A stretch of DNA of 64,000 bases from the UHGV virus genome UHGV-0021788, one strand, 5' to 3'. The notes below the pieces were generated by a model, which made no database searches, was not told where the DNA came from, and was given only the letters and a program-made list of their open reading frames with translations. Made by a program: the position numbers and the translations under genes. This document shows positions 22,590 through 56,615 of the stretch, piece after piece. Source of the stretch: a virus. Every line of letters begins with the position of its first letter. Position 1 is the stretch's first letter.

Positions 22590-23083
22590 ATGGCAAAAGC
22601 AAAAAAAGAAATAAAGAAAATAATATGTACTACTTGTGGAAGAGAATTGCCTGAAAAAGATTTTGGTAAATCTTACTCATTTAGAGATAAACTAAATGGA
22701 AGATTGCCAATTTGCAAAGACTGTTGTGCTAGTTTATATGATAAGCTAATGGTAGATTATCAAGATGAAATGAAAGCATTATATAGATTTTGTATGATAT
22801 TAGATTTATATTTTTCTAAGGATACAGTTATGGGATTAATAAGTAAGAATAGAAATTCCGAAAGTAATCTTGGATATTTATATGTATTAAAATATAATTT
22901 AGTACAATATAAAAATAAAACATTCCAAGATACAACGGCATTTGTAAATATATTTGGTATGACTGAAGAAGAAATGGAAGAAGCATTATATTTGAATACT
23001 GAAAAAACAAAAGAAGAAATAGAAAGAAAAACTAAAAAAATAGTTACTCCAGAAGTAATCAAGCGTTGGGGTAATTGCCCCCT
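22590..23083 (+). CDS. Exon 1 of a three-exon gene immediately upstream of terL (possible small terminase subunit; Zn-ribbon N-terminus 'CTTCGRELPEKDF...PICKDCC')
   Basis: ORF runs into the group I intron 5' region; the in-frame stop at 23091 lies inside conserved intron sequence 'ccctatgtttataaaaaacatag'. Exon end approximate. Confidence 0.5.
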
Positions 23084-23439
23084 ATGTTTATAAAAAACAT
23101 AGCAAACCTTTTGAATTGCTGGAAACCCCTAAAGCTTAATACACTACAACGTGGCTAGAAATGGCGAACGTGAATGTTACGAAAGTAGAAAAAAGTTGTT
23201 AAGATGATATATGGTTAAATCCTAAGTATTGTTAATAATGGGCAATCAGCAACTAAGATTCTAAATGATAATTTATCATATGAATAAAGTCCAACGACTA
23301 GAGCATAGCTCGTACACTCAAGCGAGTGGAAGTGGAAGGTGTCCTATAAATATAGGATAATGATATAGTCTAATCTCATATGAAAATATGAGCAGTCGAA
23401 AGACGGTATGTATGTGGCGAATACATATGAATATAAATG
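23084..23439 (+). mobile_element. Group I intron A (family 1, no ORF, ~356 nt)
   Basis: P 'gaattgctggaaa' (23117), Q 'aatcagcaac' (23243), R 'ccaacgactagag' (23292), S 'aatgatatagtc' (23360). P2 hairpin 'ctatgttt...aaacatag'; P9-like hairpin and 3' 'gaatataaatg'. Confidence 0.8.
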
Positions 23440-23809
23440 TTCAGATTTAGAGTTAGACGATTATATTTTTCTTGAAGATAGATATAATCAGATGCTTTTA
23501 GCCTATGATGATAAGAACCCTTCATCATTGTGGTCATATCAAGAAATATGTATGAATTATTTACTCCTTAGAAAAGATAGAGGAAATGTTCAACTTCAAA
23601 AAAGTATCCAAGAAATTAATAGTAAATTACAAGCAGATTGTAAAATGAAGTTATCACAAATAGATAATGATGATGATGATAATGCTTGTTTTGGAAAGTT
23701 TATAGATAAAATAGAATTATATGAACCATGTAATAAAAAATTACCATTCTTTGAAGATATAGATGGAATAAGACAATACTTAAAACGATGGAAACAAAAA
23801 GCCACGACT
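23440..23809 (+). CDS. Exon 2 of the terminase-small-like gene
   Basis: Open frame continuing from 23408 ORF; ends at 'gccacgact' before the intron B conserved block; in-frame with exon 3 by U/G-rule junctions. Confidence 0.45.
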
Positions 23810-24203
23810 GTATAGAAATATGCAGTGGACACAGATTTAATTGCAGGTAATTCCTAAAGCCTTACACCAAAACGGAAGGTGAAAACCTAAACGGCAACGG
23901 TACGAAAGTAGAAAAAACGTAAGGATGAATATAAGGTTAAATCCTAAGTATTCAAACATATTTATATATGTTAAAATGGATGTTCATGCAAGGAAGTTCT
24001 TAAGTGATATATTATTATATCATATGGAAAACCTTCAACGACTAGAGTTTAAATACTCGTAGGGTATAAGTGATTGATACTCGAAAAGGTCTGCCCTTAA
24101 CAGGTAGTGCTGAAGGTGAAGAAATAGTCTAGTCACTCTAGGAAACTAGGTGCTTAGAATTAACTAAGGTTTATAGTGTAGCGACTATAAATAAATATTA
24201 ACG
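23810..24203 (+). mobile_element. Group I intron B (family 1 variant, no ORF, ~394 nt)
   Basis: P 'taattgcaggtaattcc', Q 'ggatgttcatgcaagg', R 'ccttcaacgactagag' (24033), S 'agaaatagtctag' (24127). Its 5' and P/Q regions are near-identical to the TMP intron K. Confidence 0.75.
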
Positions 24204-24380
24204 TTCGTTTTGCCTTTTGCGAAGCAGTGGAAACTAGCTAAAAATGATGTATTAGAAGGAGAGGAAGGAATAGAGGATTATGAAGATGTAGATAAAATAT
24301 ATAATGAACAAAATAAAAATAAAGTCGAAGCAGAGAATGAAGTAGATAACGAGGTAGGTGAGGAAGACAATGACGAGTAG
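24204..24380 (+). CDS. Exon 3 of the terminase-small-like gene (acidic C-terminus '...EGEEGIEDYEDVDK...EEDNDE'), overlapping terL start
   Basis: 177-nt open frame ending TAG 24378-80, beginning directly after the intron-B terminal G. Confidence 0.45.
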   Translation, partial: FVLPFAKQWKLAKNDVLEGEEGIEDYEDVDKIYNEQNKNKVEAENEVDNEVGEEDNDE

Positions 24381-24920
24381 CGTAAAAGAAAATATCGAAG
24401 AAGAAAAAATACTTTCTGACGAAGTCATGAAAAGTCCTCATAAAAAAAGAAGAAATTTATCCCAAAGAAAAAAAGATAGATTAAATGAAGGTATGAAAAT
24501 ATGGACTGCATTCTATAGGTTAAACATCCATAGATTCGCACTCGATTTTTTGGGACTTAATTTATATCCGTTCCAAATTATATTGCTTTATATGATGAAT
24601 ATAATGTATAGCACTTGCCTAATATGTGCCAGAGGGTTATCGAAATCGTATATGACAGCAATATTTCTTTGTTGTAAAGCAATATTATATCCAAATAGTT
24701 TAATTGTAGTTTCTTGTTCAACTAAGGAGCAAGCCAGAAATCTTATAAAGGAGAAGATAGCTAAAGAACTATGTTCTCAGTCAAAAATGTTAAATAGAGA
24801 AATTGCTAAAGTAGTCACCGGTACTAATGAAACAGTGGTCATCTTCAATAACGGTAGTACTATTCAAGCGGTGAATGCTTCTCAAAATACAAGAGGTCTT
24901 AGATGTCATGTACTCGTGGT
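24358..24920 (+). CDS. Large terminase subunit, exon 1 (ATPase N-terminal part incl. Walker A)
   Basis: GTG start; 'CLICARGLSKSY' Walker A-like; ends '...RGLRCHVLVV' immediately before the expected Walker B 'DE'. Confidence 0.7.
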
Positions 24921-24989
24921 AGTAATCTGCCTAGATATACATATATATAAAAGTATATCCGTAATTGGGTAAAATCGGTAAAAGCTAAG

Positions 24990-25044
24990 TTTTACTTTAC
25001 ATTTTATAGTTATTATAGTATAATATAAGTAAGGAGGGGATATT
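24990..25044 (+). promoter_or_regulatory. Conserved promoter + RBS cassette (copy 4) inside intron C
   Basis: 'ttttactttacattttatagttattatagtataatataagtaaggagggg'. Confidence 0.6.
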
Positions 25045-25794
25045 ATGAGTAGAGTTGGTGAAAAAATTATTGATAATTATGGTGTTGAAATGGAAATTAT
25101 AGAATATACAAATTGTAAAAAAATAAAAGTAAGATTTAACGATGAATATGGAGTTATAATCAATACAAGATATGATTGTTTTATAGATAAGAGAATAAAA
25201 AACCCATATAGAAAATCATTTCAAGGAGTAGGATATATAGGTGTAGGTAAATATTCTTCAAAAAACACCGAAATAATGAATTGTTGGAGTAATATGTTAA
25301 AAAGATGTTATAAAGAAAACGGTAAAGATATAACATATGAAGATTGTTATGTTTGTGAAGAATGGCATAATTTTCAAAACTTCGCTAAATGGTATGAAGA
25401 AAATTATTATGAAGTAGATGGTAAATCTACATTTCTTGATAAGGATATATTATATAAAGGTAATAAAATATATTCTCCTGAAACTTGTGTGTTTGTACCA
25501 AGGTTAATAAATAATCTTTTTACCAAGAGACAAAATGAACGTGGCTTATATCCTATTGGTGTAGAACCATATAAAAACACAAATAAATTTATATCAATAA
25601 TTAGTGAAACTCATAGATATACAAAAACAAAAAGAACACATTTAGGTATTAGAGATACAATTGAAGAAGCATTTTATTTATATAAAATATATAAAGAAAA
25701 ATTAATAAAAGATATTGCAAATGAATATAAGAACGATATACCTAAAAAATTATATTATGCATTACATAATTATAAAGTAGAAATAACAGATTAA
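25045..25794 (+). CDS. Intron-encoded putative homing endonuclease / DNA-binding protein with AP2-like domain (different family from the other six)
   Basis: 'THLGIRDTIEEAFYLYKIYKEKL' resembles the AP2 DNA-binding domain common in phage HNH/NUMOD homing endonucleases. Lacks the 'LPFDFYLP' motif. No HNH/GIY-YIG motif recognised by eye. Confidence 0.45.
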   Translation: MSRVGEKIIDNYGVEMEIIEYTNCKKIKVRFNDEYGVIINTRYDCFIDKRIKNPYRKSFQGVGYIGVGKYSSKNTEIMNCWSNMLKRCYKENGKDITYEDCYVCEEWHNFQNFAKWYEENYYEVDGKSTFLDKDILYKGNKIYSPETCVFVPRLINNLFTKRQNERGLYPIGVEPYKNTNKFISIISETHRYTKTKRTHLGIRDTIEEAFYLYKIYKEKLIKDIANEYKNDIPKKLYYALHNYKVEITD

Positions 25795-26051
25795 ATAAAA
25801 TATGCCAATACCGAGTTAACTGATAAAATTAAAAAGTTGTCAGTAATGTAGAGCATAGAGATTGAACCTTTGTAAGAACTATTATATAATAGTTCTTTTT
25901 TGATTACAAAGAATAAAATATTTCCAAGAGTATCCAACACCTTATTGTATGAGGTGAAAATGTATGCCAAGCTTATAGGAAACTATAAGAGGTGGATGTG
26001 TGAATTGACACACTATTAATAGATAAAAAGCTCCACGATAAAACTTTGAGA

Positions 26052-26083
26052 TGAGTACAGAATGATACAAGGAGTAACATATA
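26052..26083 (+). CDS. Large terminase mini-exon 2 (32 nt) encoding '(V)DEYRMIQGVT' = Walker B
   Basis: Joining 24920|26052 gives '...VLVVDEYRMIQGV' (canonical TerL Walker B 'hhhhDE'). 5' exon ends in U, intron in G. Confidence 0.55.
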
Positions 26084-26442
26084 GCTCCCTATGTTTATAA
26101 AAAGCATAGAAAAACTCTTTAATTGCTGGAATATCCTAAAGCCAATTAAACTACAACGTAGAGTTAAAACTCAAGCGTGAACGTGGCGAAAGCAGAAAAA
26201 ATTAATTGGATAGCATAAGGTTAAATCCTAAGTGCTATAGACAATGGACAATCAGCAGGGAAGTCCCTTTAAAATGGGAAACCTTCAACGACTAGAACGC
26301 AAGTTCGTAGGGTGTAAGTGATTGACACTCGAAATGGGAGTTACCTAATTAAATAGGTAGTGATATAGTCTAGTCTTATATGAAAATATAAGCAGTTCAT
26401 AAGAGAACGTACATAATGTAGCGAATTATGTAGAATATAACG
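26084..26442 (+). mobile_element. Group I intron D (family 1, no ORF, ~359 nt)
   Basis: P 'taattgctggaat' (26120), Q 'aatcagcaggg' (26253), R 'ccttcaacgactagaac' (26293), S 'gtgatatagtctag' (26372). Confidence 0.8.
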
Positions 26443-26580
26443 GTTTTGATACCTTAAACTCAGTATTAAGACCATTCTTAAACTGTGTTAGAATACCAAA
26501 ATTTAAAAATAGAGATGATGGAAAATACGCAGATTATCCAACTGAGGAAAACCAAGAAATTTACTTAAGCAGTGCGTGGT
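26443..26580 (+). CDS. Large terminase exon 3 ('CFDTLNSVLRPFLNCVRIPKFKNRDDGKYADYPTEENQEIYLSSAW')
   Basis: Only open frame across this 138-nt segment between introns D and C'; frame-consistent with exons 2 and 4 under U/G-rule junctions. Confidence 0.5.
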
Positions 26581-26685
26581 AAATTCGTGCCACTTTATAT
26601 AGCGATATATAAAACAAATTGGGCAAAATCGGTCATAGTAAATCGTGAGATTAAGCTGATAAGAGAGACTAAGTATTGTTTAAAA

Positions 26686-26740
26686 TTTTACTTTTAATAA
26701 AAAATATAGTATAATATAAGTAATGGGGGTGAATATTAAA
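26686..26740 (+). promoter_or_regulatory. Conserved promoter + RBS cassette (copy 5)
   Basis: 'ttttacttttaataaaaaatatagtataatataagtaatggggg'. Confidence 0.6.
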
Positions 26741-27472
26741 ATGAATAAAATAACTACAGAAATAGCATTAAAACGAATTAATGATAAAATAAAAGAAACT
26801 AATACAACATTATATGTTGTTAATTTTGAATATGTAAAAAAGAAAAGTATAATTTATATGAAATGTAAAGTATGTGGAAAAGAAGTTGAAAGAGATTATT
26901 GGAGATTTATTCATGCAGGTGGAAAATGTGAATGCCAATATAAATATAGAAGATGGACTGAAGAAAGATGCATAGAATTAATAAAAAATAATGATTATAA
27001 TGATGAATATGAATTTGTAAATTTCAATACAGGAGCTAATATTACAATAAAACATAATATATGTAATCATGAATTTACTAGAGCTTCTTGGAATATAAAA
27101 GACAATGGTTTAAAATGTCCATCATGTTATCCACTTGATAGTGCAGGAGAATTGAATATTGAGAATTATTTAAAATCAAAAAATATTTTATATCAAAAAC
27201 AGAAAAGATTTAAAGGATGTAAAAATAAAAAGACATTACCATTTGATTTTTATTTACCACAATATAATTGTTGTATAGAATTCGATGGCGAACAACATTT
27301 TAAACCTGTCGAACACTTAGGTGGAGAAAAACACTATAATAATACAGTCATAAATGATGAAATAAAAAATGAATTTTGTAGAAAAAATAATATACTTTTA
27401 TTAAGAGTACCTTTTTATAAAATAAATGATGTAAATGATATTATTGAAAATTTTTTAAACAATATAAGTTAA
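26741..27472 (+). CDS. Intron-encoded modular homing endonuclease: 2 Cys/His DNA-binding-like repeats + C-terminal Vsr/DUF559-like (PD-(D/E)xK-variant) nuclease
   Basis: 'TLPFDFYLPQYNCCIEFDGEQHF...NILLLRVPF' matches the Vsr/DUF559 pattern (D...hIE.DG..H...R). ATG 26741 after 'GGGGGTG'. Confidence 0.65.
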   Translation: MNKITTEIALKRINDKIKETNTTLYVVNFEYVKKKSIIYMKCKVCGKEVERDYWRFIHAGGKCECQYKYRRWTEERCIELIKNNDYNDEYEFVNFNTGANITIKHNICNHEFTRASWNIKDNGLKCPSCYPLDSAGELNIENYLKSKNILYQKQKRFKGCKNKKTLPFDFYLPQYNCCIEFDGEQHFKPVEHLGGEKHYNNTVINDEIKNEFCRKNNILLLRVPFYKINDVNDIIENFLNNIS

Positions 27473-27712
27473 TACCGAGGTAAGATAGAAAATTAAAAAG
27501 TTCTATCCACCGTAACGCATAGAGATTGAACCTTTGTAAGAACTATTATATAATAGTTCTTTTTTAATTGCAAAGAATAAAATATCTCCAAGAGTGCCCA
27601 CTTCTATATTGTATAGAAGAAAATATATGCTGGACTGGGTATGAATCGACATACCATAATGCGAGGAAACTCCCAGAACTAGAGGATAAAAAGCCTTTAG
27701 GGTAACAAAACG

Positions 27713-28797
27713 TTGAGAATCATTGGAGTTATGACCTTTATTCTTCCCATGTTAAGAAAATGTTAGCAGGTGATGATTATTTTGTATGTAATCTGCCTTA
27801 TCAATTATCTGCCTATCATGGAATATTAACTAAAAAAAGAATACAAGATATTTTATCAGATGAGAATATGTCAGAAATATCATTTACGATGGAATTTGAA
27901 GCGTTATTTTATTCTGATAAAGATACTAGTTATTTTAAATCAAGTGATATATTACCTTGTAGAACATTAGAGTATGCATGGTATCCTCCAACACCAGAGG
28001 AATATTATAGAAATAAAAATAAAGAGAAAAAGAGTTATTATTTAAAGAAATTAAATGATAAAGAACTTAGAGTAATCAGTTGTGATATAGCTTTAATGAA
28101 CAGTAAAAATGGACATGACAATGATAATGCCGTATTTACTTTTATAAGAAGTATTCCAAAGAATCAAAATTATATATCACAAGTTTTATGGCAACAAACT
28201 CATGAAGGATACAAAGCTAAGCAATTAGCATTAAATATAAAAAGATTATATTTTGATACTCAAAGTGATTATATAGTACTAGATACTGCCGGTAGTGGTA
28301 TATCTGTATTAGATGAGTTAGGTGAATACACAACTGATGTAGAAAGAGGAATAGTTTATCCTCCATTAAAAGCAATGAATGATGAAAAATATGAAGAACG
28401 TTGTGGTTATTCAGAAGCACAAAAATCTATATTTTGTGTTAATGGTAGTACAAAGTTTAACCATGAAATTGCAGTAACTCTTAAAACAGCATTCCAAAAT
28501 AAAACCATTAGATTATTAAAAACACAATTTGAAGCAGATGATTTTATAGAGGGATATAATAAAATGTCTCCTAAAGAACAAGCTGATAAGTTGATGCCTT
28601 ATGTTCAAACTTCTTTAATGCAAGATGAAATAACTCAATTGGAATATGAAGTAAAAGATTCTTATATTAAACTTTATGAAACAACAGGTAAACGTAAAGA
28701 TAGATATTCAAGTTTAGCTTATGGTAATTACTTTATAAGAGAAAGAGAAAAAAAATTAAAGAAAAAGAAAAAAGGTGGATTAGCTAATCTATGGTAG
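27713..28797 (+). CDS. Large terminase exon 4 (nuclease domain)
   Basis: 'FENHWSYDL...RVISCDIALMNSKNGHDNDNAVFTF' (RNase-H-like nuclease first Asp motif); size and position before the portal gene. Confidence 0.7.
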
Positions 28798-30577: not shown

Positions 30578-31160
30578 TTGAAAGGAGGTGTAATTATGGA
30601 TAACAAGCTTAGACTACCTATTAGAAAATTTGAAAGTACAGATGAAGTTTTAGCTAATACAAATTTTAAAAAAGTTAAGATATACATTATGCATACAGGT
30701 GAAAATCTTAATGGTTCTGTATTTTCATTAGATAGTATAAATGATTCAATAGATACACTTGCAAACATTCCAATATTGGCATTTGTTGAAAAAACTGATG
30801 GACAAGATAATAAAGATTTTGCAGGACATGAAACTGATTTAGATATATTTACAGATAAAGATGGAACAATTAAAGTAAGAGAATATTATAAAGAAGTACC
30901 TATTGGAGTAATACCTGAAAGTAATGAATATTTCTTTGAAGAAAAAGATGGAGAAACATACTTAGGGTGTTATGGTTACATATGGAAATGTTATTCTAAT
31001 GATGCTTATGACATATTAGAAGAAGACCAAGAAAAAGAAGTCTCTATGGAAATTTATATAAATAATTGTTCTTATGATAGAAAACAAAGATGTAATATTA
31101 ATAAATTTGAATTTCTTGGAGTAACAGTTTTAGGTGCAAAATATCCAGGAGTAATTAGCT
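30578..31160 (+). CDS. Head-morphogenesis gene exon 1 (protease/scaffold-like N-terminal part); exon end approximate
   Basis: ORF (TTG start, 'GGAGGTG' RBS) runs into the intron E 5' block 'tccctatattaag'. Position between portal and capsid genes. Confidence 0.4.
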
Positions 31161-31362
31161 CCCTATATTAAGTGATTAGTATAGAAAATTCTCTGAATTG
31201 CTTGTAATCCCTAAAGTCAACTAAACTACAACGTGATTGGAAACGATGAGCGTGAACGTGGCGAAAGCAGAAAAAATTAGTTGAATGGTATATGGTTAAA
31301 CCCTAAGTACTTTTGCAATGGGTGTCTAGCAGGTAAGATTCTAAATTTATTTAAATTAAATG

Positions 31363-31416
31363 TTTGACTTTTAATAACAAAATAGGTATAATATAAGTAA
31401 ATGGGGAGGTGATTAA
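31363..31416 (+). promoter_or_regulatory. Conserved promoter + RBS cassette (copy 6)
   Basis: 'tttgacttttaataacaaaataggtataatataagtaaatggggagg'. Confidence 0.65.
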
Positions 31417-32505
31417 ATGGCATGGAATAAAAATTCTATAAAAGAATATATAGATAAAACACAATATGAATTAATTAATTTTAAAATATTCGATGGGTTG
31501 AATTCTATAATATTAATAAGATGTAAAAAATGTGAAGAAGTTTATGAAATAAAATTCAGCAACTTTAAAAGAAAAAAAGATAAGAATTATTGTAAGAATT
31601 GTGAATTTATAAATAAAAAGAATGAGCTTATCAATAAATGTATAGAATTTGCAAATGATATAAATTATAAAGTTCTTAATGTTTTTTACGAAAACGAAAG
31701 ATGGTTTGTCGAATTACAATGCAACAATGGTCATGCTTTATATATTACTAGAATTGAACATTTTTTAAACAATCATTTATGTAGACAATGTGCAAATGAA
31801 TCTTTGATTATATGGGATGAAAATGCTATTAAAGAAGCTATAGAAAAAGAGAAATATCAATTAATTGAGATTCTTGAAAATAAGGGATATGAAAGTAAGA
31901 TATCTATTTGGTGTGGTAATAAAAATCATAGCCCATATACAACATATTTTTCAGAATTTCAAAAAAATCATAGATGTAGACAATGTTATAGTGGAAGTAA
32001 AATAAAATGGAAAAAAGATGATATAATTTGTTATGTTGAAAAAGAAAAGGAAAAATTTATAGATTTTATAGAATATAATGGTTTCAATTCTACTATTAAA
32101 ATATTATGCGAAAAGCATGGAGAATACAAAATTAGATTCGACCATTTCATAGAAGGTCAAAGATGCCCTATATGTAAAGAATCTAAAGGAGAAAAGAAAA
32201 TAAGAGAAAATTTAGAAAAACTTAATATTGAATTTGAACACCAATATACTTTCAAGGACTGTAAATGTTATAAAGAATTGCCATTTGATTTTTATTTACC
32301 TCAATATAATATGGTTATAGAATATGACGGAGAACTACATTATCAAATAGTTGATTATTTTGGTGGATTAGATAAATTTATAAATATCAAAATAAGAGAT
32401 ACTATTAAAACTGAGTATTGCAAAAATAACAATATTAAACTTATAAGAATACCATATTGGAATTTTAAAAATATTGAAAAAATAATTTGTCAAGAATTTA
32501 ATTAA
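31417..32505 (+). CDS. Intron-encoded modular homing endonuclease: 4 Cys/His repeats + Vsr/DUF559-like nuclease
   Basis: 'ELPFDFYLPQYNMVIEYDGELHYQ...NIKLIRIPYW'. Repeats each ~60 aa with C..C/H...C..C spacing ('CKKCEE', 'CRQCANE', 'CRQCYSG', 'CPICKESKGE'). Confidence 0.65.
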   Translation: MAWNKNSIKEYIDKTQYELINFKIFDGLNSIILIRCKKCEEVYEIKFSNFKRKKDKNYCKNCEFINKKNELINKCIEFANDINYKVLNVFYENERWFVELQCNNGHALYITRIEHFLNNHLCRQCANESLIIWDENAIKEAIEKEKYQLIEILENKGYESKISIWCGNKNHSPYTTYFSEFQKNHRCRQCYSGSKIKWKKDDIICYVEKEKEKFIDFIEYNGFNSTIKILCEKHGEYKIRFDHFIEGQRCPICKESKGEKKIRENLEKLNIEFEHQYTFKDCKCYKELPFDFYLPQYNMVIEYDGELHYQIVDYFGGLDKFINIKIRDTIKTEYCKNNNIKLIRIPYWNFKNIEKIICQEFN

Positions 32506-32760
32506 ATAAATATGAATAAACTTCAACGACTATTGAAATAATTGTAAGAACCTTATCAGAGGTTCTTTTTGATTGCAATTAAAGTAAAGTACTCTTAAGT
32601 AAGAGGAAGTAGAGAATGTCTTATTTAATTAATGTAAGATGAAGTAGAAAATGTCTTATTTAATTAATGTAAGATAATGATATAGTCTCAACGTTTAGCG
32701 AAAGCTAAAGAAGTTCATAAGAGAACTGCGTAAGAATAACGAACTTATGTGAAGATATTG

Positions 32761-35017: not shown

Positions 35018-35228
35018 AGTTTACTAGACAGCCCCCTATGTTTGTAAAAAGCATAGCAAATCCTTTTAATTGCTGGAAACTCCTAAAGCTCAATTCACTA
35101 CAACGTAGAGTTAAAACTCAAGCGTGAATGTTACGAAAGTAGAAAAAAGTAATTGAGATTACCCAAGGTTAAATCCTAAAGGTGAATGAATGGACAATCA
35201 GCAGGGAAGATTTTGATTAACACTTAAT

Positions 35229-35275
35229 TTTTTATAAGTTTATGAGTATAATATAAATAAATGGAGGTGATGAAA
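35229..35275 (+). promoter_or_regulatory. Conserved promoter + RBS cassette (copy 7, weaker -35)
   Basis: 'ttataagtttatgagtataatataaataaatggaggtg'. Confidence 0.5.
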
Positions 35276-36187
35276 ATGGCAAGAAAGATTTGGAATGAAA
35301 TTACAATAAAAGAATTTATAGAAAATGAAACAAATTATAAATTCATATCAATAGTTAAATTAAACGGAATGAAATCAATGGTATTAGTATGGTGTGGTAA
35401 TCCTAATCATAAGCCTTATAAAGTTCGATTTGATGCATTTAAAGGTACTTCTAAAAAAGAAGGAACGAGATGTGAACAATGTAGAAGAGAAAAAGATACC
35501 ATTTGGACTAAAGATGAAATTATAAAATATGTAGAATCTCAAGATTATAAATTTATAAGATTTGTAAAATTTAATAAATATGCAAGTACAATAGAAATTC
35601 AATGTAATAAAGGACACGAATCATATGAAACATACTTTAGTAATTTCTATAATAATAGAAGATGTTTTCAATGTCATATAATATGGTCTAAAAAAGATAT
35701 TATTAATTTTGTAGAATCTCAAGATTATAAATTTATAAGATTTATAACATATGAAAAAAATAATAGTTTAATAGAGATAAAGTGTCCTAAAGGACATATG
35801 AATCAAGTTAGATTTAGAAAATTTAAAGAAGGAACTAGATGCCCAAAATGTAATAAATCTAAAGGTGAGGAAAGAGTAAAAGATATATTAAAAGAAATGT
35901 GTATAGATTTTAAATCACAATACAAATTCAAAGATTGTAAATGTAAAAAAGAGTTGCCATTTGATTTTTACATACCTTCATTAAATATTGCAATAGAATA
36001 TGATGGAATACAACATTTTGAAATATTACCACATTGGGGTGGCATTGATAAACTTATAGAAACTAAAATACATGATGAAATAAAAACACAATATTGTAAA
36101 AGAAAAAGAATAAAACTTATTAGAATTCCTTATTGGGAATTTAAAAATATAGAAAATATACTTATAAAAGAATTAGTGTTAAATTAG
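35276..36187 (+). CDS. Intron-encoded modular homing endonuclease: 3 Cys/His repeats + Vsr/DUF559-like nuclease
   Basis: 'ELPFDFYIPSLNIAIEYDGIQHFE...RIKLIRIPYW'; ATG 35276 after 'GGAGGTG'. Confidence 0.65.
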   Translation: MARKIWNEITIKEFIENETNYKFISIVKLNGMKSMVLVWCGNPNHKPYKVRFDAFKGTSKKEGTRCEQCRREKDTIWTKDEIIKYVESQDYKFIRFVKFNKYASTIEIQCNKGHESYETYFSNFYNNRRCFQCHIIWSKKDIINFVESQDYKFIRFITYEKNNSLIEIKCPKGHMNQVRFRKFKEGTRCPKCNKSKGEERVKDILKEMCIDFKSQYKFKDCKCKKELPFDFYIPSLNIAIEYDGIQHFEILPHWGGIDKLIETKIHDEIKTQYCKRKRIKLIRIPYWEFKNIENILIKELVLN

Positions 36188-36345
36188 AATAACCTTCAAC
36201 GACTAGAGCATAAGCTCGTACACTCAAGTGAGTGGAAATGGAGGATGCCTAGAAATAGGTAGTGATATAGTCTTGTCTCATGTGAAAGCATGAGTAGTTC
36301 ATAAGAGAACGGATTAGGAGTAACGACCCTAGTTGAAAATAAACG

Positions 36346-40373: not shown

Positions 40374-40559
40374 ATGGCTACACTTTTTGCTATAAAAGAT
40401 GCTATAGATTTAAAAATAACTAAAAAAGGTGAACAAACAGTTTTCACTACAATAGACTATTTAAATGATTGTCAAATAGAAATGGACTCAGAACAAGTAT
40501 ATGCACTTAAAAAAGGAGATAACTACATATCATTCTCAAGTGGTAGAACAGGAATAACT
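40374..40559 (+). CDS. Major tail (tube) protein exon 1
   Basis: ORF ends 'GITY*' inside the intron 5' block; junction 40559(U)|41699 gives '...SGRTGIT-ALTMNCQV...' in frame. Confidence 0.55.
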
Positions 40560-40765
40560 TATTAATAATAAAACGTTCCCTATGTTTGTAAAAAGCATAG
40601 CAAATCCTTTTAATTGCTGGAAACTCCTAAAGCTCAATTCACTAAAACATAATCTGAAAATGATAAGTGTGAATGTTACGAAAGTAGAAAAAAGTAATTG
40701 AGATTACCCAAGGTTAAATCCTAAAGGTGAATGAATGGACAATCAGCAGGTAAGATTTATATTTA

Positions 40766-40822
40766 TTTTACTTTACTTTTAATAATTAAATTTGTATAAT
40801 ATAAGTAAATGGAGGTGGCAAA
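40766..40822 (+). promoter_or_regulatory. Conserved promoter + RBS cassette (copy 8)
   Basis: 'ttttactttacttttaataattaaatttgtataatataagtaaatggaggtgg'. Confidence 0.6.
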
Positions 40823-41536
40823 ATGGGAGTTATTAAATATGATTATGATTTCGTTAAAAAATATATCGAAAGTTTTAATTATAAATTATTAAGTGATTAT
40901 ATTGGTATACATGATAAAATAACATTAAAATGTCCTAAAAACCATATTTATAAAACTTCATTTAATAGTTTTTATAGTAACAACTGTAGATGTGGAAAAT
41001 GTAAAAATTTAGAAACAGCAAATAAGAGAAAATATTCAATTGAATACGTTAAAGAATATTTAAATTTATTTGGATATAAATTATTAACAGAAAACTATAT
41101 TAACAATAAACAAAAATTAAAAATAGAATGTGAAAAGGGACACATTTTCTATATGAGTTTTAGTAAATTTAAAAATGCAAAACAAAGATGTCCAGTGTGC
41201 AAAATGTCAAGTGGCGAACAAGAAATTTATAGAATATTACATAAATATTTTGATGACATTGAAATACAATATAAATTTAATGACTGTAAAGATAAAAAAA
41301 GACTTCCATTTGATTTTTATTTACCTCAATATAATTGTTGTATAGAATTTGATGGTATTCAACATTTTGAATATCAGCCACATTTTGGAACTTATTCTAA
41401 ATTTTTAAAACAGCAAAAAAGAGATGAAATAAAAACAGAATATTGTAAAAAAAATAATATAAAATTAATAAGAATAGCTTATTATGAATTTGATAAAATA
41501 GATGAAATTATAAAAAATGAATTAAAAGTAAAATAA
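40823..41536 (+). CDS. Intron-encoded modular homing endonuclease: 2-3 Cys/His repeats + Vsr/DUF559-like nuclease
   Basis: 'RLPFDFYLPQYNCCIEFDGIQHFE...NIKLIRIAYY'. Confidence 0.65.
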   Translation: MGVIKYDYDFVKKYIESFNYKLLSDYIGIHDKITLKCPKNHIYKTSFNSFYSNNCRCGKCKNLETANKRKYSIEYVKEYLNLFGYKLLTENYINNKQKLKIECEKGHIFYMSFSKFKNAKQRCPVCKMSSGEQEIYRILHKYFDDIEIQYKFNDCKDKKRLPFDFYLPQYNCCIEFDGIQHFEYQPHFGTYSKFLKQQKRDEIKTEYCKKNNIKLIRIAYYEFDKIDEIIKNELKVK

Positions 41537-41698
41537 TAAATATGAATAAACTTCAACGACTATCCCTAAATGGGAGTACACTCAAGTGGGTGGAAATGGA
41601 GGATACCTAGAAATAGGTAGTGATATAGTCTACTCTTACATGAAAATGTAAGCAGTCGAAAGACGGTATGAGATTAACGACCTCATGCGAATGTTAAG

Positions 41699-43191: not shown

Positions 43192-46100
43192 GTGAGCGAA
43201 TTTGATATAAGAATTGGTACGCAACTAGATACTAGTAAAGCGTTACAAGAATTAATGGAATTTGTCAAAAAATATGACAATAAAGAAAAGATAAATATAG
43301 ACATAGGTCAATCAAAAGGTGCTAATAATGTAAAGAATACAACTAAAGCTATGAAAGAAATGCAAAAAATAGCTAAGACATTAGGAAATACAAAGATTGA
43401 CGTAGGTAGTAACATAGGTAAAGCAACCAATGAAGCTACCAAATCATTAGAAAATAGTATAGATAAACAAGCCAAATCTATTGCTAAAATAACTAGTGGT
43501 GCACAAAGAGATTTAACTAAAGATGCTCAAAAGGGTATTGAAAATAGTCTTAAAGGTATTACTACAGAAATGAAGAATACCCAAAGAAATGTCGACAAGA
43601 TGATTGGTACTCTTGAACGAGCTAAGAAGGTTGAATTAATAGACCAAAAAGGTTTAGATGAAGGATTAGCTAAATTAAAAGATATGAAAGCTAACCTTAG
43701 AATAGACAATGTTGGTGATGTAGAGAAAAAATTAGGCGAAGTAGCAAATGACTATAAAAGATTAATGTCAGATGCAACTAAAGAAGCATTTAATAATGTT
43801 GAAGTATCAGGATTATTAGAGGATTTAAAAGTTGTTAGAGAAGCTATGTCAGCTAAAAACATGGACTTAACTGGTGTTGATACTTTAATTTCTAAAGCTA
43901 AACAACTTACTTCTTTAAGTGTTGACCAAATGTTAAAACAATATAAAGAGTTAAGACAAGTATTTAGTAAAGAATTAAAGATACCATTAGGTTTAAATGG
44001 TGTAATGAATGCTGAAACTGCAATTAAAAATGTTTTAGATTATAAAAACAAATTAACTGCTAAAATTTCAGTTGAAACAAATTCAGAGCAAGTAGATATT
44101 TTAAGAGATAAAATAGTAAGATGTGATGAAGTTGTTAAACAACTTGAAGGAGACTTAAATTTAGTAGGTAGAAGTACAGCATTAAACTTAATGGAACAAT
44201 CCAATGAAAGAGAATTAGATACATTAAGTGCTAAGTTAAAGAGATGTAAGAATGATTATGCTAACTTAGAAAAAGAAAGACAAAGATTAAATAGAGATAG
44301 TAGATACATTGGAACAGAAGATTTAAGTAATATAGAAAAACAATCATTAGCTATAAAGAAAGCTCTTGATAGTTTAAATATTGGAAATTTAAATACAGAT
44401 AAAATAAATAAAGTTACTGGCGATATAAATAATTTAAGAAAAACAATAGAATTAACTGGTAATTCAGCTAAAAAATTAGATATAGAAGCAACAGTTAAAG
44501 TAGATATGAAAACTGCTCAAGACCAATTAAATGGTATGTATTCTGCTTTAATAAAATCTAATAAATCTACCGTAATGGTTAAAAAATATAAAGATGAATT
44601 AGAAGGATTATTTGATTTATCTAAAACTAATCCAGGTGTAGCATTAGATAAAATAAGTGGTTTTATAGAAAAAGTAAATAAAGAAGCAAGTAATAAAGGT
44701 TTAGGTAAGATAACTGGTGGTTTAGACCAATATAAACAATATTTAAAAGATTATGAAACATTAGTTAAAAAGGCTAGTGGTACTACAGATATTGGTTTTG
44801 CAAAAGCTTACAAATCAGAAGTTACACAAATAGAAAAAGCATTAGACCAATTAGAAAGTGGATTTAATCAAACTCAAAAATCTATGGCTAAAGCTTTAAG
44901 ATTAGAATCAATTAATAAGAACACTCAAGAGTTTACTAATCAAGTTGAAAAATCTATTAAGAAAACTCAAGAATATAAAAAAGAGTTACAAACTCTTAAT
45001 AAAGATGTAAATTTTGATGGTCTTACTTCTAAATTAGGTCAAAAAGTCAAAGAAGAATTTGACGGAATGATTAACAAAACTAATCAATTAGAAAAAAGAC
45101 TTGGTAATATGTTATCATCAGGTAACATAAATACTACTGAATTATCTAAATTAAAATCAGAACTTGAAAGTACTTTTTCTGGTCTTTCTAAACTTAAAGA
45201 TACTAGTATTAAAATTAAAACTGATGAAACTATATCAGGACTTAATAAAATTAAAAAAGATTTAGAATCATTAGGTCAAGATACTAGTCAAATAGAAAGA
45301 GTTATTAATGCATTAAAACAACTTAAAGCTAATTTCAGTGGTGGTACAGCAGGTTATAAAGAATTAGCTAATGGAATAAAAGCTATTGGAAAAGATAATA
45401 ACTTGGAAAAACTAAATAGTTCTTTAGAAAAATCAACTAAAAAATTTAATAACTTAGCTAAGGTTGTTGGAGAATTAAAGGTTAAAAATATAGGAAATAT
45501 AGACCAAGGTGCTTTTCAATCTTTAGACAGTCAAGTTGCACGAATACAATCTCATATAGAAGGTTTAAATAAAAAAGATATATCTTTAATAGATGTTAAA
45601 AAGGTTGAAGCTGAAGTAAATGAATTAAGCAACTGTGTAGAAAAAACGAGTAGTGAATTAACTCAGTATAGTAGATATTTAGAAGAATATAAAAGATTAT
45701 CTAGCCAAGCAGGTAAAACAAATGATGTTAATTTAGCTACAAAATATCAACAAGAAGCAGAAGGTATAAAAGGTGTATTAACTCAATTAGAAAGCGAATT
45801 TACACAAGCTCAAAAATCTATTGCTCAAGGATTAAAAACAGATGCCTTCTCAAATGCTAATGAAAAAATGTCTTCTGAAATTAATAAAACAATTAATACA
45901 GTTGATGGTCTTAAAGAAAAACTTAATTCATTAAATAAAGATGTACATTTTGAAAATATGACATCTGAATTAGGTAAAGGATTAAATGACCAATTTAATA
46001 CTTTAACTAGTAAAGGTGAAGAATTAAAAAATAAATTAAGTAAAATATTAGCATCTGATAATGTGGATATTTCTGCTTTAAGTAAAATTAAAAAAGAAAT

Positions 46101-48327
46101 AAATGAGTTTGCAAGTGAAGTTAATAATTTAAAAAATTCTGCAATGGATAATGTTATTAGAGAATCTTTTGATAACATTAAAATACCTAATTTAAATAAA
46201 CAACTAGAAGCAGTTAAAGATTTAATGTCACTTAAAAATATGGATACTAGTGGTATAGATGCCTTAATAGAAAGAACTAAAAAACTATCAAGCTTAAGCG
46301 TAGATAAAATAGGTCAAGAATTTAAGGAAATACAAAATGCACTTGGTAAAGAAATTAATTTACGTTTAGGTACTAGTGGTATTAAAGATATAGAATCTGC
46401 ATTAAAAGTCATATTACAATATAGAAATGAATTAAAAAATAAAATAGCAGTAGAAACAGACCCATCAAAAGTAAAAGACCTTAATAGTCAATTAGAAAAA
46501 ACTGAAAGCATAATAGAAAAACTTAAAGGTCAAACAAGTAATGGGCTTGGTGCAAGTTTAATTGGTGATGCTGACAAAAACAATTTGAAACAATTAGAAG
46601 ATACTGCTGATAAATTAAAGAAAACATTCTCTAATTTAGAAAACGAAGTAAATAAATTAAACAATGAAGCATTGAATAAAGTTGACATAAGTCAATTAAG
46701 AGAAATGAATGAAGTTGTTAATGATGTAAAGAAAAATTTAGCATCTATTGGAGAAGGAAATGTTAATGTTAATTCAATAAATAAAACAGCACAAGACATA
46801 GAAAAATTAAAAGGACTAATAGAAAACACTAAAAAGACAATTAGTGATATGAAATTGGAAGTTTCATTTAATGTTAAATCAAATGAAGCAGAACAATATT
46901 TAGCAGGTTTTGAATCAGCATTATTAAGATTAGGTAAATCAACCAGTGGAATAAATGCTTTAAAGAGTGAATTTGAAAGTATAAAAAATTCAGCTAATGG
47001 AAATTTAAGTAGTGCCATAAAAATGATTGATGACTTTATTAACAAATTAAAACAAATGGGTAGTAAACAAGGCTTAGGCAACATAAGTGGTACTATGTCT
47101 CAATATAAACAATATACTAAAGAATTACAACAAGCCATGAGTGGGGCATTAAAATCTAGTGGTTCTGATACAGCTAAAGGATTTGAACAACAAGCTGAAC
47201 GAATAAAGAGTGCTATAAAACGTTTGGTTGCAAGTTTCAAAGAATCACAAAGAGAATCGGCTAATGCTTTTAATGGTAGTACATTTAGTGGTTTTTCTTC
47301 TAAATATGAAGCTGAAATAAATAAAGTTGAAAAAAGCATAAACAGATTTAAATCATCAATGCAAAACTTAGATAAAGCTGTAAACTTTAAAGGCTTTCAA
47401 ACAAATTTAGGTAAAGGTTTATCTGAAGAATTTGACCAAATAATGGCGAAAGCTGAACAATTAAGGGATAAATTAAAGAGTGCATTATCTTCTGGTACAT
47501 TTGATATAAGTGAAATAAATAGAATAAAAGATGAATTAAAACAAGTTGAACAAGAAGCAGATTCATTAAAACAAAAATCTATAGTATTAAAATGTGCTGA
47601 AAGTATAACAGAATTAGAAAGACTTAGTGGTAAGATAAAAGATATAGGTGGAGACACATCAAAAATAGAAGAATTAAAAAATAAATTTGTTACACTTGGT
47701 ACAGGTATAAGAGAAGGTACTACAGGAATAGATGATGCAATTTCTAAATTAAAATCCTTATCTTCCGAAGCACAAAGAACTGCTAGTTCTTTTGAATCAA
47801 CTACTGGTAAAATAGGTTCTTTTGGTTCTAAAATACAAGGTTTCTTTAGTTCTATAAAGAATTCATTTAGTACTTTTACTATTGGTAATTTAATGGCTGA
47901 TGGTATAAATCAAGCTGTTTATCAAATAAAAGATACTATAACAGGTTTAGATGAAGCAATGGCTGAATTTAAAAGGGTTGCTCCTGATAACTTTAGTTTA
48001 AATACATCTAATTTACAAAGTGTTGCTAATGAAGCAAGAGAAATAGGTATTAGTGTTGGACAATCAGTAGAAGATGTTATCACTGGAATGAGTACTGCAT
48101 TACAAGCAGGTGCAGGTGATATTAAAACAGCTTCTGAAATAGCTAAGAGTTCTGCTATATTCCAAAATGTTACAGATATGAGTGCAAAGGGTGCTTCAAA
48201 AGCTATTTCTTCAATGGTTAACCAATATTATGATATGGATTCAGCATTAAATCAAGTTGACCACGGTGTAGGTAAATCCGTAAAAGGGTACAACAACCTA
48301 ACCGAAGCGATGGATTTGGTAATTGAT
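43192..48327 (+). CDS. Tape measure protein (TMP) exon 1 (~1712 aa); 3' end approximate
   Basis: GTG start after 'AAGAAAGAGTGGTGG'; long coiled-coil repeats; conserved TMP region '...NLTEAMDLVID'. The ORF-track tail 'LPFILEII*' is intron sequence conserved with intron J ('ttgccgt(c)tt..ata(g)aaata...attagaggg'). Confidence 0.65.
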
Positions 48328-48615
48328 TTGCCGTTTATATTAGAAATAATATAAATTATTAGAGGGCAAAATCGGTGAAGACTAAGTTTTTATAAATATG
48401 TTGATACCGAGATAACTTATTAGATTGCGAAAGGCTAATAAGTATTGTAGAGCATAGGAATTGAATAAATATAATATTCCCAAGAGTGCCCTCCATTCTA
48501 ACGTAAAAAGACGAGGATGAAAATATATGCCATACTGAGCTAGAATTGACTAGCTGATGAAAATGAGGGAAACCTCCAGAGCATAAGATAAAAAGCTTAT
48601 GGATAATAACAATAG
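48328..48615 (+). mobile_element. Group I intron H (family 2, no ORF, ~290 nt); boundaries approximate
   Basis: P 'aaaatcggtgaagactaagt' (48369), Q 'gataccgag' (48402), R 'gtagagcataggaattgaa' (48447), S 'gaaaatatatgcc' (48521), 3' 'gataaaaagcttatggataataacaatag'. Confidence 0.65.
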
Positions 48616-48640
48616 AAATTACGCTGGTTAGAATTAGCCA

Positions 48641-49008
48641 GGCTATATGGAAACATGTAGTACAAATCTCTTTTGAATTGCTGGAAAGGACTTAGAGCCT
48701 ATTGAACTACAACGTAGATGGAAACATCAAGCGTGAATGTTTAAAAATCAATAGGATTGTTTAATCAGCAGGTAAGATTCTAAGTAATAATTTTATATTA
48801 TTATATGAATAAACTTCAACGACTATCCCTTGGATGTTGAAATACATCAATAGGAGTACGGCTCAAGTGATTGGAGTGGGTGAGAATCCCTTAAATGGAA
48901 GTGGAAGAGGACTTATAAAGGTTCAAGATATAGTCTACTCTCGTAGGAAATCTACGAGCAGTCCTTTTTTGGACGGTATATGTGTAGCGAACATATATGA
49001 ATATTAAG
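48641..49008 (+). mobile_element. Group I intron I (family 1, no ORF, ~368 nt); 5' boundary approximate
   Basis: P 'gaattgctggaaagg' (48676), Q 'taatcagcaggtaagattc' (48764), R 'aacttcaacgactatccc' (48823), S 'aagatatagtctac' (48928), 3' 'gaatattaag'. Retains 'atgaataaacttcaacg', the sequence found at the 3' end of HEG insertions. Confidence 0.75.
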
Positions 49009-49396
49009 GAATAACTTTGCGATTTCATCTGATGGTGTAACAGAAGCATTACAACGTGGTGGTTCTGTATTATCTAACTATGGAGTAGATTTAAAAGATT
49101 CTATTGCAATGATAACTGGGGCAAATGAATCTTTACAAGACCCCGCTCGTATAGGTAATGGTTTAAAATCTATAGCAATTAACCTTTCAGGTATTAAAAC
49201 AAATGCAAAAACAGGTGCTCTTGAATTAAATAAAACAGCAAAAGCATTGCAAGAAACTGCTAAGATAGATATATTTACTGATAGTACTAAAACACAAGTT
49301 AAAGATGTTGTTACTATAATGGATGAAGTAAAAGATAAATGGGCTTCTTTAACTGATGTTGAACAAAAAGGATTGTCAGAAGCTATAGCTGGTAAT
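49009..49396 (+). CDS. TMP exon (conserved TMP core '...NNFAISSDGVTEALQRGGSVLSNYGVDLKDSIAMITGANESLQDPARIGNGLKSIAINLSG...')
   Basis: Open frame from the intron-I terminal G through 'AIAGN' at 49396; the downstream TAA (49400) and the next 50 nt are closed in all frames and so are intronic. Confidence 0.7.
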
Positions 49397-49768
49397 ATGT
49401 AAGATTAGTAAATTTATATAAATTTTTATAAAATACAAAAATCTTAAAATTGCCGTCTTTGATAGAAATATTAAAGATAATTAGAGGGATGTATCGGTGA
49501 AGCCTAAGTCGAAAGATATGGTAATACCGAGGGTATCTTAACAGAGAATATCCGTAACGCATAGGGAGTGAGCGATATTGTTAGCAATAACCTCCCCACG
49601 AGCTTCCTCCACGATTATATATAGGATAATCACTTATAGATGTTGCTACTATAAGTTCTAACGTTAAACGAGAGTGAAAATATATGCTGGACTTATGAGA
49701 AATCATAAGAAGTGGATGTGTGAATCGACACACTATTAATAGATAAAAAGCTCCACGATAACAAATCG
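49397..49768 (+). mobile_element. Group I intron J (family 2, no ORF, 372 nt)
   Basis: P 'gtatcggtgaagcctaagt' (49490), Q 'aataccgagg' (49521), R 'ccgtaacgcatagggagtgagcg' (49551), S 'gaaaatatatgctgg' (49677), P9 'gtggatgtgtgaatcgacacac...ctccacg'. Junction 49396(U)|49769 gives in-frame '...AIAGN-KTQAGVFQALMTGW...'. Confidence 0.75.
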
Positions 49769-55700: not shown

Positions 55701-56615
55701 GTAAGAAACAATTAGTTAAATATGGCATTACATTTGATGAAGATGGCAATATAGACAATCTATCAAAAGCATTGAAAAAATTAGATAATCTACAAGATAT
55801 GGAAGATTTAAAAGATTTAGCTGATGAATATAATGATTATAAAGATTCAATAGATGATGCTAGTAAATCAATTGAAGAAGAAACTAATAAACAACTTGAA
55901 TTAAAAGATTCAATGATGGAAATTAGAGAAGAAATGAGAAAACTTAGAGATGATGCATGGGTTAAAACTTATGAAAATGGTCTAAAAGTTATTCAAAATC
56001 GTATTGATACAATAGATTCTTTATTAGATTTAGAAGATGAAAATCAATTTAGTTTACTAAATCAAAAAATTGAAGAATATAAGAATTTAACTAAAGCGAC
56101 TGAGGATAGTTTGGCTTATCAAAAACATAGAAAAATCACTATGCAAAAAACATTGATTGATTATGGTTTCACTATTAATGATGATGGTACAATAGATGGA
56201 ACTGCTAATAAATTAGAACAACTTAAAAATACATTATCTGAAACTGAATTTGGTATAGTAAGTGATACATTAGAAGATTATTTTGATACTGCTTTAGATA
56301 CAATTCCTGAATTAGAAAGAGAATTAATAAAATATCAAAAAGATTTAAAAGATATACAAAATACTAAACTAGAAAAGACTAAAACTATTGAAGAAAAAAT
56401 TACTGAAATATATAACGATGAAATAGATAAAAGAACTAAAAAGATACAAGAAGAAGCAGAAGCACAAACTAAAGCACTTAATAAAGCCAAAGAATCTTAT
56501 CAGAGATGGAGAGACGAAGTTGACTATAAAGATGATTATAATAAACAATTAAAAACTGTTGAAGATTTACAAAAGAAAATAGAAATAGCAAAACGAGATG
56601 ACAGCCTAACTGGGT
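49769..56615 (+). CDS. TMP main exon (~2282 aa)
   Basis: Open frame from the intron-J terminal G (upstream of annotated 49796 start) to 'DSLTG'; TM-like hydrophobic hairpins near the N-terminus of this exon ('LGLFKGVLMGIAFTAVVKGI'), long coiled coils. Confidence 0.7.
52557..52800 (+). repeat. Three tandem ~84-nt in-frame repeats in TMP ('EGDTSGAEKVEKEVDNV..K.GTAK')
   Basis: Copies starting at about 52563, 52646 and 52730. Confidence 0.75.
52845..53060 (+). repeat. Tandem 'KGQLEVNGQAITD..V' repeats in TMP
   Basis: 'gaaaaaggtcaattagaagtaaatggtcaagctataactgat' duplicated (52930, 53015) plus a diverged first copy. Confidence 0.7.
53215..53840 (+). repeat. ~9 tandem Cys-containing ~20-aa repeats in TMP ('TINCQDNATSKINSIA' / 'FTINCTDNA..K...')
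   Basis: Repeated 'aattgtcaagataatgcaa' / 'aattgtacagataatgc' units. Confidence 0.7.
54460..54820 (+). repeat. Lys/Ser/Thr low-complexity tract (~120 aa of 'KKKSTSKKK...') inside TMP
   Basis: Continuous 'aagaagaaatcaactagtaagaaaaag' style repeats; composition almost purely K/S/T. Confidence 0.8.

Follow-up and report, generated by a model that had tools for sequence, protein, structure and literature searches.

Complete group I introns that flank a very short exon are known from a few systems. In orf142 of phage Twort, two highly similar IA2 introns, I2 and I3, lie around a 23-nucleotide (nt) exon, and this exon is skipped (Landthaler & Shub 1999, summarised in PMC10136302). In the 23S rRNA gene of Coxiella burnetii, an IB2 and an IA3 intron flank an exon of 34 nt (PMC10136302). 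Prophages of the Bacillus cereus group carry IA1 and IA2 introns in their tape-measure and large-terminase genes, where related introns occupy different sites, with P1 alone changed, within the best-conserved region of the gene; three sites were described in the tape-measure gene and single introns in the terminase genes, and many of these introns lack an endonuclease gene (Tourasse & Kolsto 2008, PMC2504315). Multi-intron terL and ribonucleoside diphosphate reductase genes, the splicing of which was shown experimentally, have been reported for the Bastillevirinae (Weglewska et al. 2025, PMC11878797). Two arrangements of this kind are described here in a 64,000-nt stretch of UHGV virus genome UHGV-0021788; this whole stretch is referred to as the window. 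In terL, encoding the large terminase subunit, an intron of a family designated 2 (intron C) is closely followed by one of a family designated 1 (intron D), and the same holds for introns H (family 2) and I (family 1) in the tape-measure gene, as the first-pass annotation had proposed. Each transcript contains two complete predicted ribozymes, with exons of 26-27 and 12-13 nt, respectively, between their full cores. Each pair most probably consists of two independent, complete introns that separately colonized neighboring, conserved hot spots, and the arrangement is a further, denser case of the known tandems of group I introns with a short exon in between.

As in Twort orf142, a very short exon of a phage gene is enclosed by two complete group I introns; moreover, family 1 is homologous to introns of Twort-like phages, and the Romulus homologue of orf142 also has two tandem introns. 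Unlike in Twort, the partners belong to different families, the exons measure 26 and 12 nt, the host genes are those for TerL and the tape measure, and the arrangement is known here from DNA alone. The Coxiella case likewise combines group I introns of two subgroups on either side of a short exon, but other subgroups are involved, the exon is longer, and the introns interrupt an rRNA gene of a bacterium instead of a protein-coding gene of a phage. The B. cereus prophages, by their description, have the same two host genes and two IA subclasses, but mini-exons of this size were not described there (PMC2504315), whereas here at least seven (tape measure) and at least nine (terL) sites are found, with up to seven introns in one terL gene. 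The terL genes of the Bastillevirinae contain two or three group I introns, with a small exon between two of them, and some of their introns encode a PHROG 559 endonuclease, as does intron E here (PMC11878797); unlike the phage of the window, these are Bacillus myoviruses, and their intron density is lower. Phage phiCD211, with a terminase ~37% identical to that of the window, resembles it in having, all within the PF10145 part of its tape-measure gene, a family-2 intron, a 33-nt exon (EKVGTALKTIG) and a second group I intron. However, the sites are different, and the core of the second intron is different and smaller. In the phiCD211 record (L005, LN681537.2 28580-29180), the gene is split into a 'Minor tail protein' and a 'Tail tape measure protein'; only the second intron is annotated, and the family-2 intron and the 33-nt exon are not.

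Intron boundaries were fixed by the reading frame, the terminal G, P1/P10 complementarity, and intron-less alleles in relatives drawn from IMG/VR and human-gut metagenome assemblies (given with L numbers); the intron-less references were L007 and L009 for D, L011 for C, and L015 for H plus I. The terL gene is composed as follows:

24370..24920, + strand, terL exon 1, ending in ...RGLRCHVLV plus gt (open-reading-frame listing and alignment to uninterrupted terminases)
24921..26048, + strand, intron C, family 2, 1128 nt, with an endonuclease gene in the P5 loop and a terminal G
25045..25794, + strand, predicted homing endonuclease gene in C, 249 amino acids, PHROG 953/374/2081 'HNH endonuclease' (E=2.5e-55)
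26049..26074, + strand, mini-exon of 26 nt (27 if U26075 is exonic), encoding (V)DEYRMIQG
26075..26442 (alternatively 26076-26443), + strand, intron D, family 1, IA2-like, 368 nt, without endonuclease gene
26443..26580, + strand, exon 3, 138 nt, ...SSAW plus t, with junctions confirmed against L009, which lacks E
26581..27712, + strand, intron E, family 2, with a predicted endonuclease gene at 26723-27472 and a terminal G
27713..28797, + strand, exon 4 (alignment to uninterrupted terminases)

Together, the four exons comprise 1800 nt, i.e., 599 codons and a stop codon, collinear with the terminases of SPbeta and phiCD211. The last base of exon 1, U24920, faces the G of the guide of intron C, AUCU|GCC, of which GCC pairs with GGU of exon 1 (P1) and AUCU with AGAU of the mini-exon (P10). 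Intron D starts at the P1 loop, and the last bases of the mini-exon, GGAG, pair with its guide CUCC (P1). In L011, which lacks C, the exons are joined as gtggt|tgatgag, and in L007 and L009, which lack D, as caaggag|gttttgat; hence, the mini-exon is continuous with exon 1 in the former and with exon 3 in the latter two. The P1 of intron E is GUGGU/GCCAC, and L009 reads gcctggtttgagaat at this site, with junction tggt|ttgag. The first-pass annotation had proposed that the mini-exon supplies the Walker B 'DE' missing from exon 1. Indeed, ...HVLVV|DEYRMIQG|... aligns with ...LIVDEFRMV... of the uninterrupted terminases of the SPbeta/phiCD211 type, so that the mini-exon carries the Walker B motif with the catalytic DE.

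The corresponding part of the tape-measure gene has the following features:

43192..48320, + strand, first exon, ending in ...LTEAMDL plus gt (U48320; open-reading-frame listing)
48321..48615, + strand, intron H, family 2, 295 nt, without endonuclease gene
48616..48627 (or -48628), + strand, mini-exon of 12 nt (13 if U48628 is exonic), aaattacgctgg(t), encoding (V)NYAG
48628..49008 (alternatively 48629-49009), + strand, intron I, family 1, 381 nt, without endonuclease gene
49009..49393, + strand, exon of 385 nt after intron I
49394..49768, + strand, intron J, family 2; absent from L017, with junction gctgga|aaaaccc

The guide of H, UGAUUU|GCCG, pairs with AAAUUA of the 3' exon (P10, 6 bp) and with UGGU of the 5' exon (P1), while the P1 of I is formed by CUGG(U) of the mini-exon and the guide (G)CCAG. 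The mini-exon is wholly occupied, without overlap, by 6 nt of the P10 of H and 6-7 nt of the P1 of I, and these 12 nt are the shortest natural exon known to us that separates a pair of group I ribozymes. L015, which lacks both introns, reads gtgaattatgctggcaat, and its protein, ...DLVNYAGNNF... (AMDLVNYAGNNFAISS), is exactly the product predicted by removing H and I separately. In C. difficile phage pCD1602_4, a homologue of J occupies approximately the site that J has here. The order of introns in both terL and the tape-measure gene is family 2, family 1, family 2, and PF10145, the only Pfam-detectable domain in this protein of >4000 residues, spans the intron cluster.

Although both pairs in the first-pass annotation proved real, their boundaries were off by several bases, since the P1 loop of the downstream intron had been taken as exon. 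Thus, C ends at 26048 rather than 26051, D occupies 26075-26442 or 26076-26443 rather than 26084-26442, and the terL mini-exon is not of 32 nt with the translation ...QGVT but of 26-27 nt, encoding (V)DEYRMIQG(G/V). Likewise, H and I start at 48321 and at 48628 (or 48629), not at ~48328 and ~48641, leaving 12-13 nt between them instead of ~25.

Twelve introns were defined in the window by self-comparison and motif scans: A, B, D, F, G, X, I and K of family 1, and C, E, H and J of family 2. In scans of narrow windows, the full RF00028 model (1-253) was matched by D (72.8 bits, E=1e-18), I (68.9 bits, E=2.4e-17) and H (36 bits, E=1.8e-7), and the endonuclease-free copy of C in L007 reached 24.4 bits (E=3e-4). 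Relative to the gathering score of 50, D and I exceed the threshold, and H and the L007 copy of C fall short of it. Introns A and B also match the full model, as found in a 7-kb scan. Scanning the whole window at the Rfam gathering threshold detected only one of the 12 introns (A), and E-value scans of 7 and 5 kb overlooked D, H and I, which were recovered in scans of ~400-700 nt; in windows of 400-700 nt, four of five intron-bearing stretches (D, I, H and C of L007) were found at E < 1e-3. The default Rfam scan is, therefore, very insensitive to such AT-rich introns with long insertions.

The core of family 2 was deduced from an alignment of seven copies from five phage lineages, i.e., H, J, C of L007, the intron at the E site of L011, and introns of phiCD211, pCD1602_4 and the crAss-like phage cr6_1. 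None has an endonuclease gene within the aligned stretch; the cr6_1 copy begins just 3' of one. The consensus comprises P2, P3, P4-P5, P6, P7, a P7.1-type hairpin, P8 and P9, with a P3/P7 pseudoknot. Partners are paired in 91.2% of the alignment cells, vs. 33-44% when partners are slid, and compensatory changes occur in 38 of the 65 pairs, vs. 9-13 in slid controls; none of 500 shuffles attained the observed values. The compensatory changes are located in P2, P3, P4-P6, P7.1, P8 and P9, while P7 is invariant. Family 2 is a divergent IA-type ribozyme that is barely detectable by Rfam, and family 1 is of an IA2-like type common in phages of Staphylococcus, Bacillus and Clostridium; D, for example, is homologous to introns of Clostridium phage c-st and of Staphylococcus Twort-like phages. 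A terminal G (omega G) closes all 12 introns of the window and all introns of relatives examined, once the junction is fixed by an intron-less allele. Every family-2 intron (C, E, H, J and those of relatives) is preceded by a U, which is in U.G wobble with the guide; GGU precedes six of ten.

Both families are genuine group I ribozymes, and each member of a pair has a full core of its own, as the first-pass annotation had maintained when it discounted a twin-ribozyme; the matches of D, I and H to the full model and the covariation in family 2 bear this out. Each pair is thus predicted to comprise two unrelated, complete, self-splicing introns. Inteins, group II introns and twintrons were ruled out by size, in-frame stop codons and core structure. 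With respect to the twintron or twin-ribozyme, the cores lie side by side with coding sequence between them, and each occurs alone in relatives.

The exact 5' junctions of D and I depend on the splice register of family 1, the choice of which shifts the lengths of the mini-exons by one base. Wherever an intron-less allele fixes the junction of a family-1 intron of this group, the exon end lies one base before the U that faces the G of the guide. This was seen for introns A, B, G, X and K of the window and for T1, S3, S4 and the portal intron of relatives, at loci including L017 7910-9254, L011 6301-6654 and L009 7300-8608; for intron F, which has no intron-less allele, the reading frame and the terminal G indicate the same upstream register. 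In this register, the last exon base is a G, except for two cases with A, and it is Watson-Crick paired, with a compensatory change from G-C to A-U, while the intron starts with UAA and ends with G. Intron K appears decisive: if the U were kept, a GGG UAA stop would result, whereas L017 and L016 read TGQKR. The canonical ...U|UAA... is found in the family-1-like introns S1 and T4 and in the Twort-like homologues of Romulus, the UAAC start of which aligns with the start here. Introns D and I fit either register, and for D both keep the frame and the terminal G; the canonical U.G rule alone would place the starts at 26076 and 48629. Annotated splice junctions were sought in the records of Romulus and Clostridium phage D-1873, but neither annotates joins. 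Possibly, with the balance tilting slightly against it, D, I and at least nine paralogues represent an IA2-like branch that splices one nucleotide upstream of the conserved U.G wobble. If so, the 5' exon would end in a Watson-Crick-paired G or A with the wobble at intron position +1, an exception to the near-universal rule of an exon-terminal U.

The comparison of related phages, as suggested in the first-pass annotation, revealed that the partners come and go independently. In terL, C without D is found in L007 (C = 323 nt) and L009, in both cases in a form lacking the endonuclease gene; D without C, with an endonuclease gene in P6, is found in L011, L012 and L008, and the window has both. 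In the tape-measure gene, H and I are both present in the window, L013, L014 and six further contigs; neither is present in L015, nor in L017, which has a family-1 intron (T1) inserted 14 nt upstream of where H would be. Intron I occurs alone in L032, a metagenome contig, and L027 and L028 have T1, a 25-nt exon and then I. A strict-pattern search of IMG/VR for H-only and I-only alleles found none; the I-only allele came from a looser metagenome scan. Self-comparison identified E and J as the closest relatives of C, G and K as those of D, and J as that of H. The two mini-exons are unrelated in sequence, and each consists of local host gene sequence.

The sites of insertion are densely clustered. 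They were mapped by laying spliced genes onto relatives, and their numbers, at least nine in terL and at least seven in the tape-measure gene, are lower bounds. In coding-sequence nucleotides, the terL sites are 155 (family 1), 262 (family 2), 367 (family 1), 499 (family 1), 528 (family 2), 551 (family 2, C), 577 (family 1, D), 712 (family 2) and 715 (family 2, E). All nine are located in the first 715 nt, in the ATPase domain (a 560-nt span), and none in the remaining 1085 nt; the seven tape-measure sites lie within ~520 nt, all in or adjoining PF10145. The terL gene of L012 (786-9963) contains seven introns, with exons of 29 and 49 nt. Sites 712 and 715, both in the SSAW motif and at a distance of only 3 nt, are used by two different family-2 introns, one following GCAU and the other UGGU (window 26580/26581 vs. 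L011 8534/8535, also L012 and L008), and each guide fits its own site.

The spacing of the partners was evaluated by simulation. The joint probability of the two spacings was ~0.001 when introns were placed uniformly over the two coding sequences and ~0.03 when they were confined to the segments that actually host introns. Hence, the clustering is real, and hot spots account for most of it. The first-pass annotation had also read a shared target or insertion preference from the common order of the partners. The preference stands in the form of hot spots in the terL ATPase motifs and PF10145, but the shared order of family 2 followed by family 1 is not significant and has no special meaning, because relatives show three close pairs in the reverse order (with exons of 29, 52 and 30 nt) and one family-1/family-1 pair, T1 and I. 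Seven of the eight close pairs are of mixed family (p ~0.035). This is a weak trend, and T1 plus I in L027 and L028 shows that it is no rule, weakening the notion that close pairs must mix families. Still, the trend fits experiments with tandem introns: identical tandem introns skip the exon, and differentiating the core structure and P1/P10 suppressed skipping in engineered tandems, although differentiation of ribozyme sequence alone did not always do so (PMC10136302).

Homing endonuclease genes are carried by C, E and K in the window and by D, J and T5, and probably H, in relatives (J and T5 in L013). In L030 (1221-2672) and L031, the H-I interval is ~760 nt longer, and H (or I) probably bears an endonuclease gene there. 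The endonuclease of C has a weak Pfam AP2 match, with DNA homologues in Bacillus phages annotated as HNH/AP2, and that predicted in E belongs to PHROG 559 (E=1.3e-50). Which introns bear such a gene varies among near-identical phages, and presence/absence polymorphism is found at every site. With an encoded endonuclease and a polymorphic presence at a fixed site, C and E qualify as putative mobile introns. TerL, the portal gene of relatives and gene F have, at AGGAG| sites, introns whose 5' region and guide are nearly identical to those of D. The portal intron, at the site corresponding to window position 29733, is a family-1 intron with an endonuclease gene (L009 7300-8608, also L010-L012). 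Its first ~190 nt are ~86% identical to D, its guide is identical, and its site reads AGGAG|UUUG vs. AGGAG|GUUUUG for D; the window and L007 lack it. This suggests that such an intron may have spread to a look-alike site in the portal gene, directed by its guide or its endonuclease.

Introns have probably colonized short conserved stretches separately, i.e., the Walker B/ATPase core of terL and the PF10145 core of the tape-measure gene. The guide sequence of each ribozyme would let it recognize its own splice sites, the upstream intron pairing with the 4-6 nt at the start of the mini-exon (P10) and the downstream intron with the 4-7 nt at its end (P1), and two separate excisions would restore the reading frame. 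Self-splicing, the order of excision and the inclusion of the mini-exon are here predictions from genomic sequence. The probable route of spread is endonuclease-driven gene conversion during co-infection, in which introns without an endonuclease gene would ride on conversion tracts begun by their neighbors, and related ribozymes may be re-targeted to new sites via changes in P1. The latter has been described for tape-measure and terminase introns of types IA1 and IA2, which adapt P1 to new sites (PMC2504315), and it is established that flanking markers are co-converted in the course of homing (PMC3984707).

Several observations weigh against separate colonization as the full account. H was never seen without I (nine contigs with both, none with H only), and linkage of the two by co-conversion remains likely, since an exon of 12 nt is too short for recombination to end within it. 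Also, the residual probability of ~0.03 may reflect an additional attraction, e.g., endonuclease footprints or hitch-hiking, and the 5' exons of family 1 seem to end in G instead of the canonical U. A rival reading is a composite mobile unit, in which a family-2 and a family-1 intron travel together, by one endonuclease-driven conversion or one transposition, and were inserted in both genes. The identical order in both genes, the presence of I in every contig with H, and the 12-nt exon, where conversion would carry both introns, agree with this idea. However, alleles with C only, D only and I only exist, the closest relative of C is not H and that of D is not I, the mini-exons are unlike in length and sequence, each fitting the gene in which it lies, and reverse-order and same-family pairs occur, which makes the composite unit very improbable. 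As far as can be judged from the single-partner alleles, the kinship within families and the host-derived mini-exons, a unit moved from one gene to the other appears excluded, and the co-mobilization suggested in the first-pass annotation cannot be upheld in that form: C is found without D, D without C and I without H, and the order is reversed elsewhere. Another rival, hitch-hiking, is rather doubtful but deserves more credit: endonuclease-free introns would last and spread best inside the co-conversion tract or recognition footprint of a neighbor that has an endonuclease gene, and insertion beside a neighbor may, in addition, remove the site recognized by a competing endonuclease. It fits the residual of ~0.03, the established co-conversion of flanking markers (PMC3984707), and the fact that only part of each cluster bears endonuclease genes, in a set that differs between near-identical phages: for C it is present in the window and absent in L007, for D it is present in L011 and absent in the window, and H probably has one in L030 and L031. 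Nevertheless, C and D are inherited separately though only 26 nt apart, and no endonuclease gene is present within 7 kb of H, I and J in the window.

Separate colonization also has to be weighed against readings that assign the pairs a function or deny that they are functional at all. Skipping of the mini-exon would yield a TerL without Walker B or truncated, or an altered tape measure, and could serve as a switch of timing or dosage. The terL mini-exon holds the catalytic DE, skipping is documented for the 23-nt exon of Twort orf142 and the 34-nt exon of Coxiella 23S rRNA (PMC10136302), and in the terminase of SIOphi the exon-skipped form is the dominant product (PMC11878797). Regulation is improbable here, given that the arrangement is dispensable, as relatives manage without one or both introns, that skipping of a 26-nt exon leads to a frameshift and an early stop, and that the partners differ in family and guide, while in engineered tandem introns differentiation of both the core structure and P1/P10 suppresses skipping (PMC10136302). 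Finally, the introns could be decayed relics or no introns at all, e.g., assembly artifacts or intein-like or other insertions, with the genes broken; the single hit in 12 of the whole-window Rfam scan and the sub-threshold scores of family 2 might be read in this way. This is scarcely credible in view of the 69-73 bits of D and I in narrow scans, the strong covariation of family 2, the G at the end of every intron, the exact restoration of the protein of intron-less alleles upon intron removal, and the recurrence of the structures in independent assemblies, one of them at 250x coverage. Two independent introns per pair, each inserted into its own site of a conserved hot spot, accommodate these observations best.

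The remaining introns of the window, all of family 1, are the following; the 3' ends of F, G and X were corrected against L007 and L015:

23072-23439, + strand, intron A, in the gene upstream of terL
23792-24202, + strand, intron B, in the gene upstream of terL
~31157-32715, + strand, intron F
~35018-36343, + strand, intron G
~40553-41661, + strand, intron X, in a tail gene
56615-58177, + strand, intron K, carrying an endonuclease gene

Altogether, 12 group I introns are located within ~36 kb of the window, in six genes. The + strand genes from ~9.9 kb on form the packaging, head and tail module of a phage. The gene just upstream of terL (22590-24380), which is split by A and B, probably encodes the small terminase subunit; A is missing in L011 and B in L007. 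Intron X is missing in L007 as well, where another family-1 intron of the same tail gene ends ~40 nt upstream of the X site; this place (L007 20480-20560 vs. window 40553) is a further hot spot.

The spliced TerL is, over its full length, 37-42% identical to uninterrupted terminases of SPbeta-like Bacillus phages and phiCD211/LIBA-like Clostridioides phages, and no GenBank phage was matched in a megablast search with the portal/terL region. In IMG/VR, relatives were found as five contigs of 173-204 kb from a single metagenome, plus fragments from a second one, with portal proteins 96-99% identical to that of the window, and more copies of the phage are present in human-gut metagenome assemblies. 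The same intron structures recur across these independent assemblies. The lineage is that of a human-gut phage with a genome of ~170-200 kb, in which introns are extremely abundant and turn over quickly: the phages are 93-99% identical across exons yet unlike at almost all of >20 intron sites.

Gene callers and the standard Rfam scan overlook nearly all of these introns and, therefore, gut phages of this type will have their terL, portal, capsid and tape-measure genes annotated as fragments, as is already the case in the phiCD211 record. Their near-identical genomes constitute a natural experiment in intron dynamics, in which the re-targeting of ribozymes via P1, the persistence of introns without an endonuclease gene, and the minimal spacing between two ribozymes can be studied from sequence.

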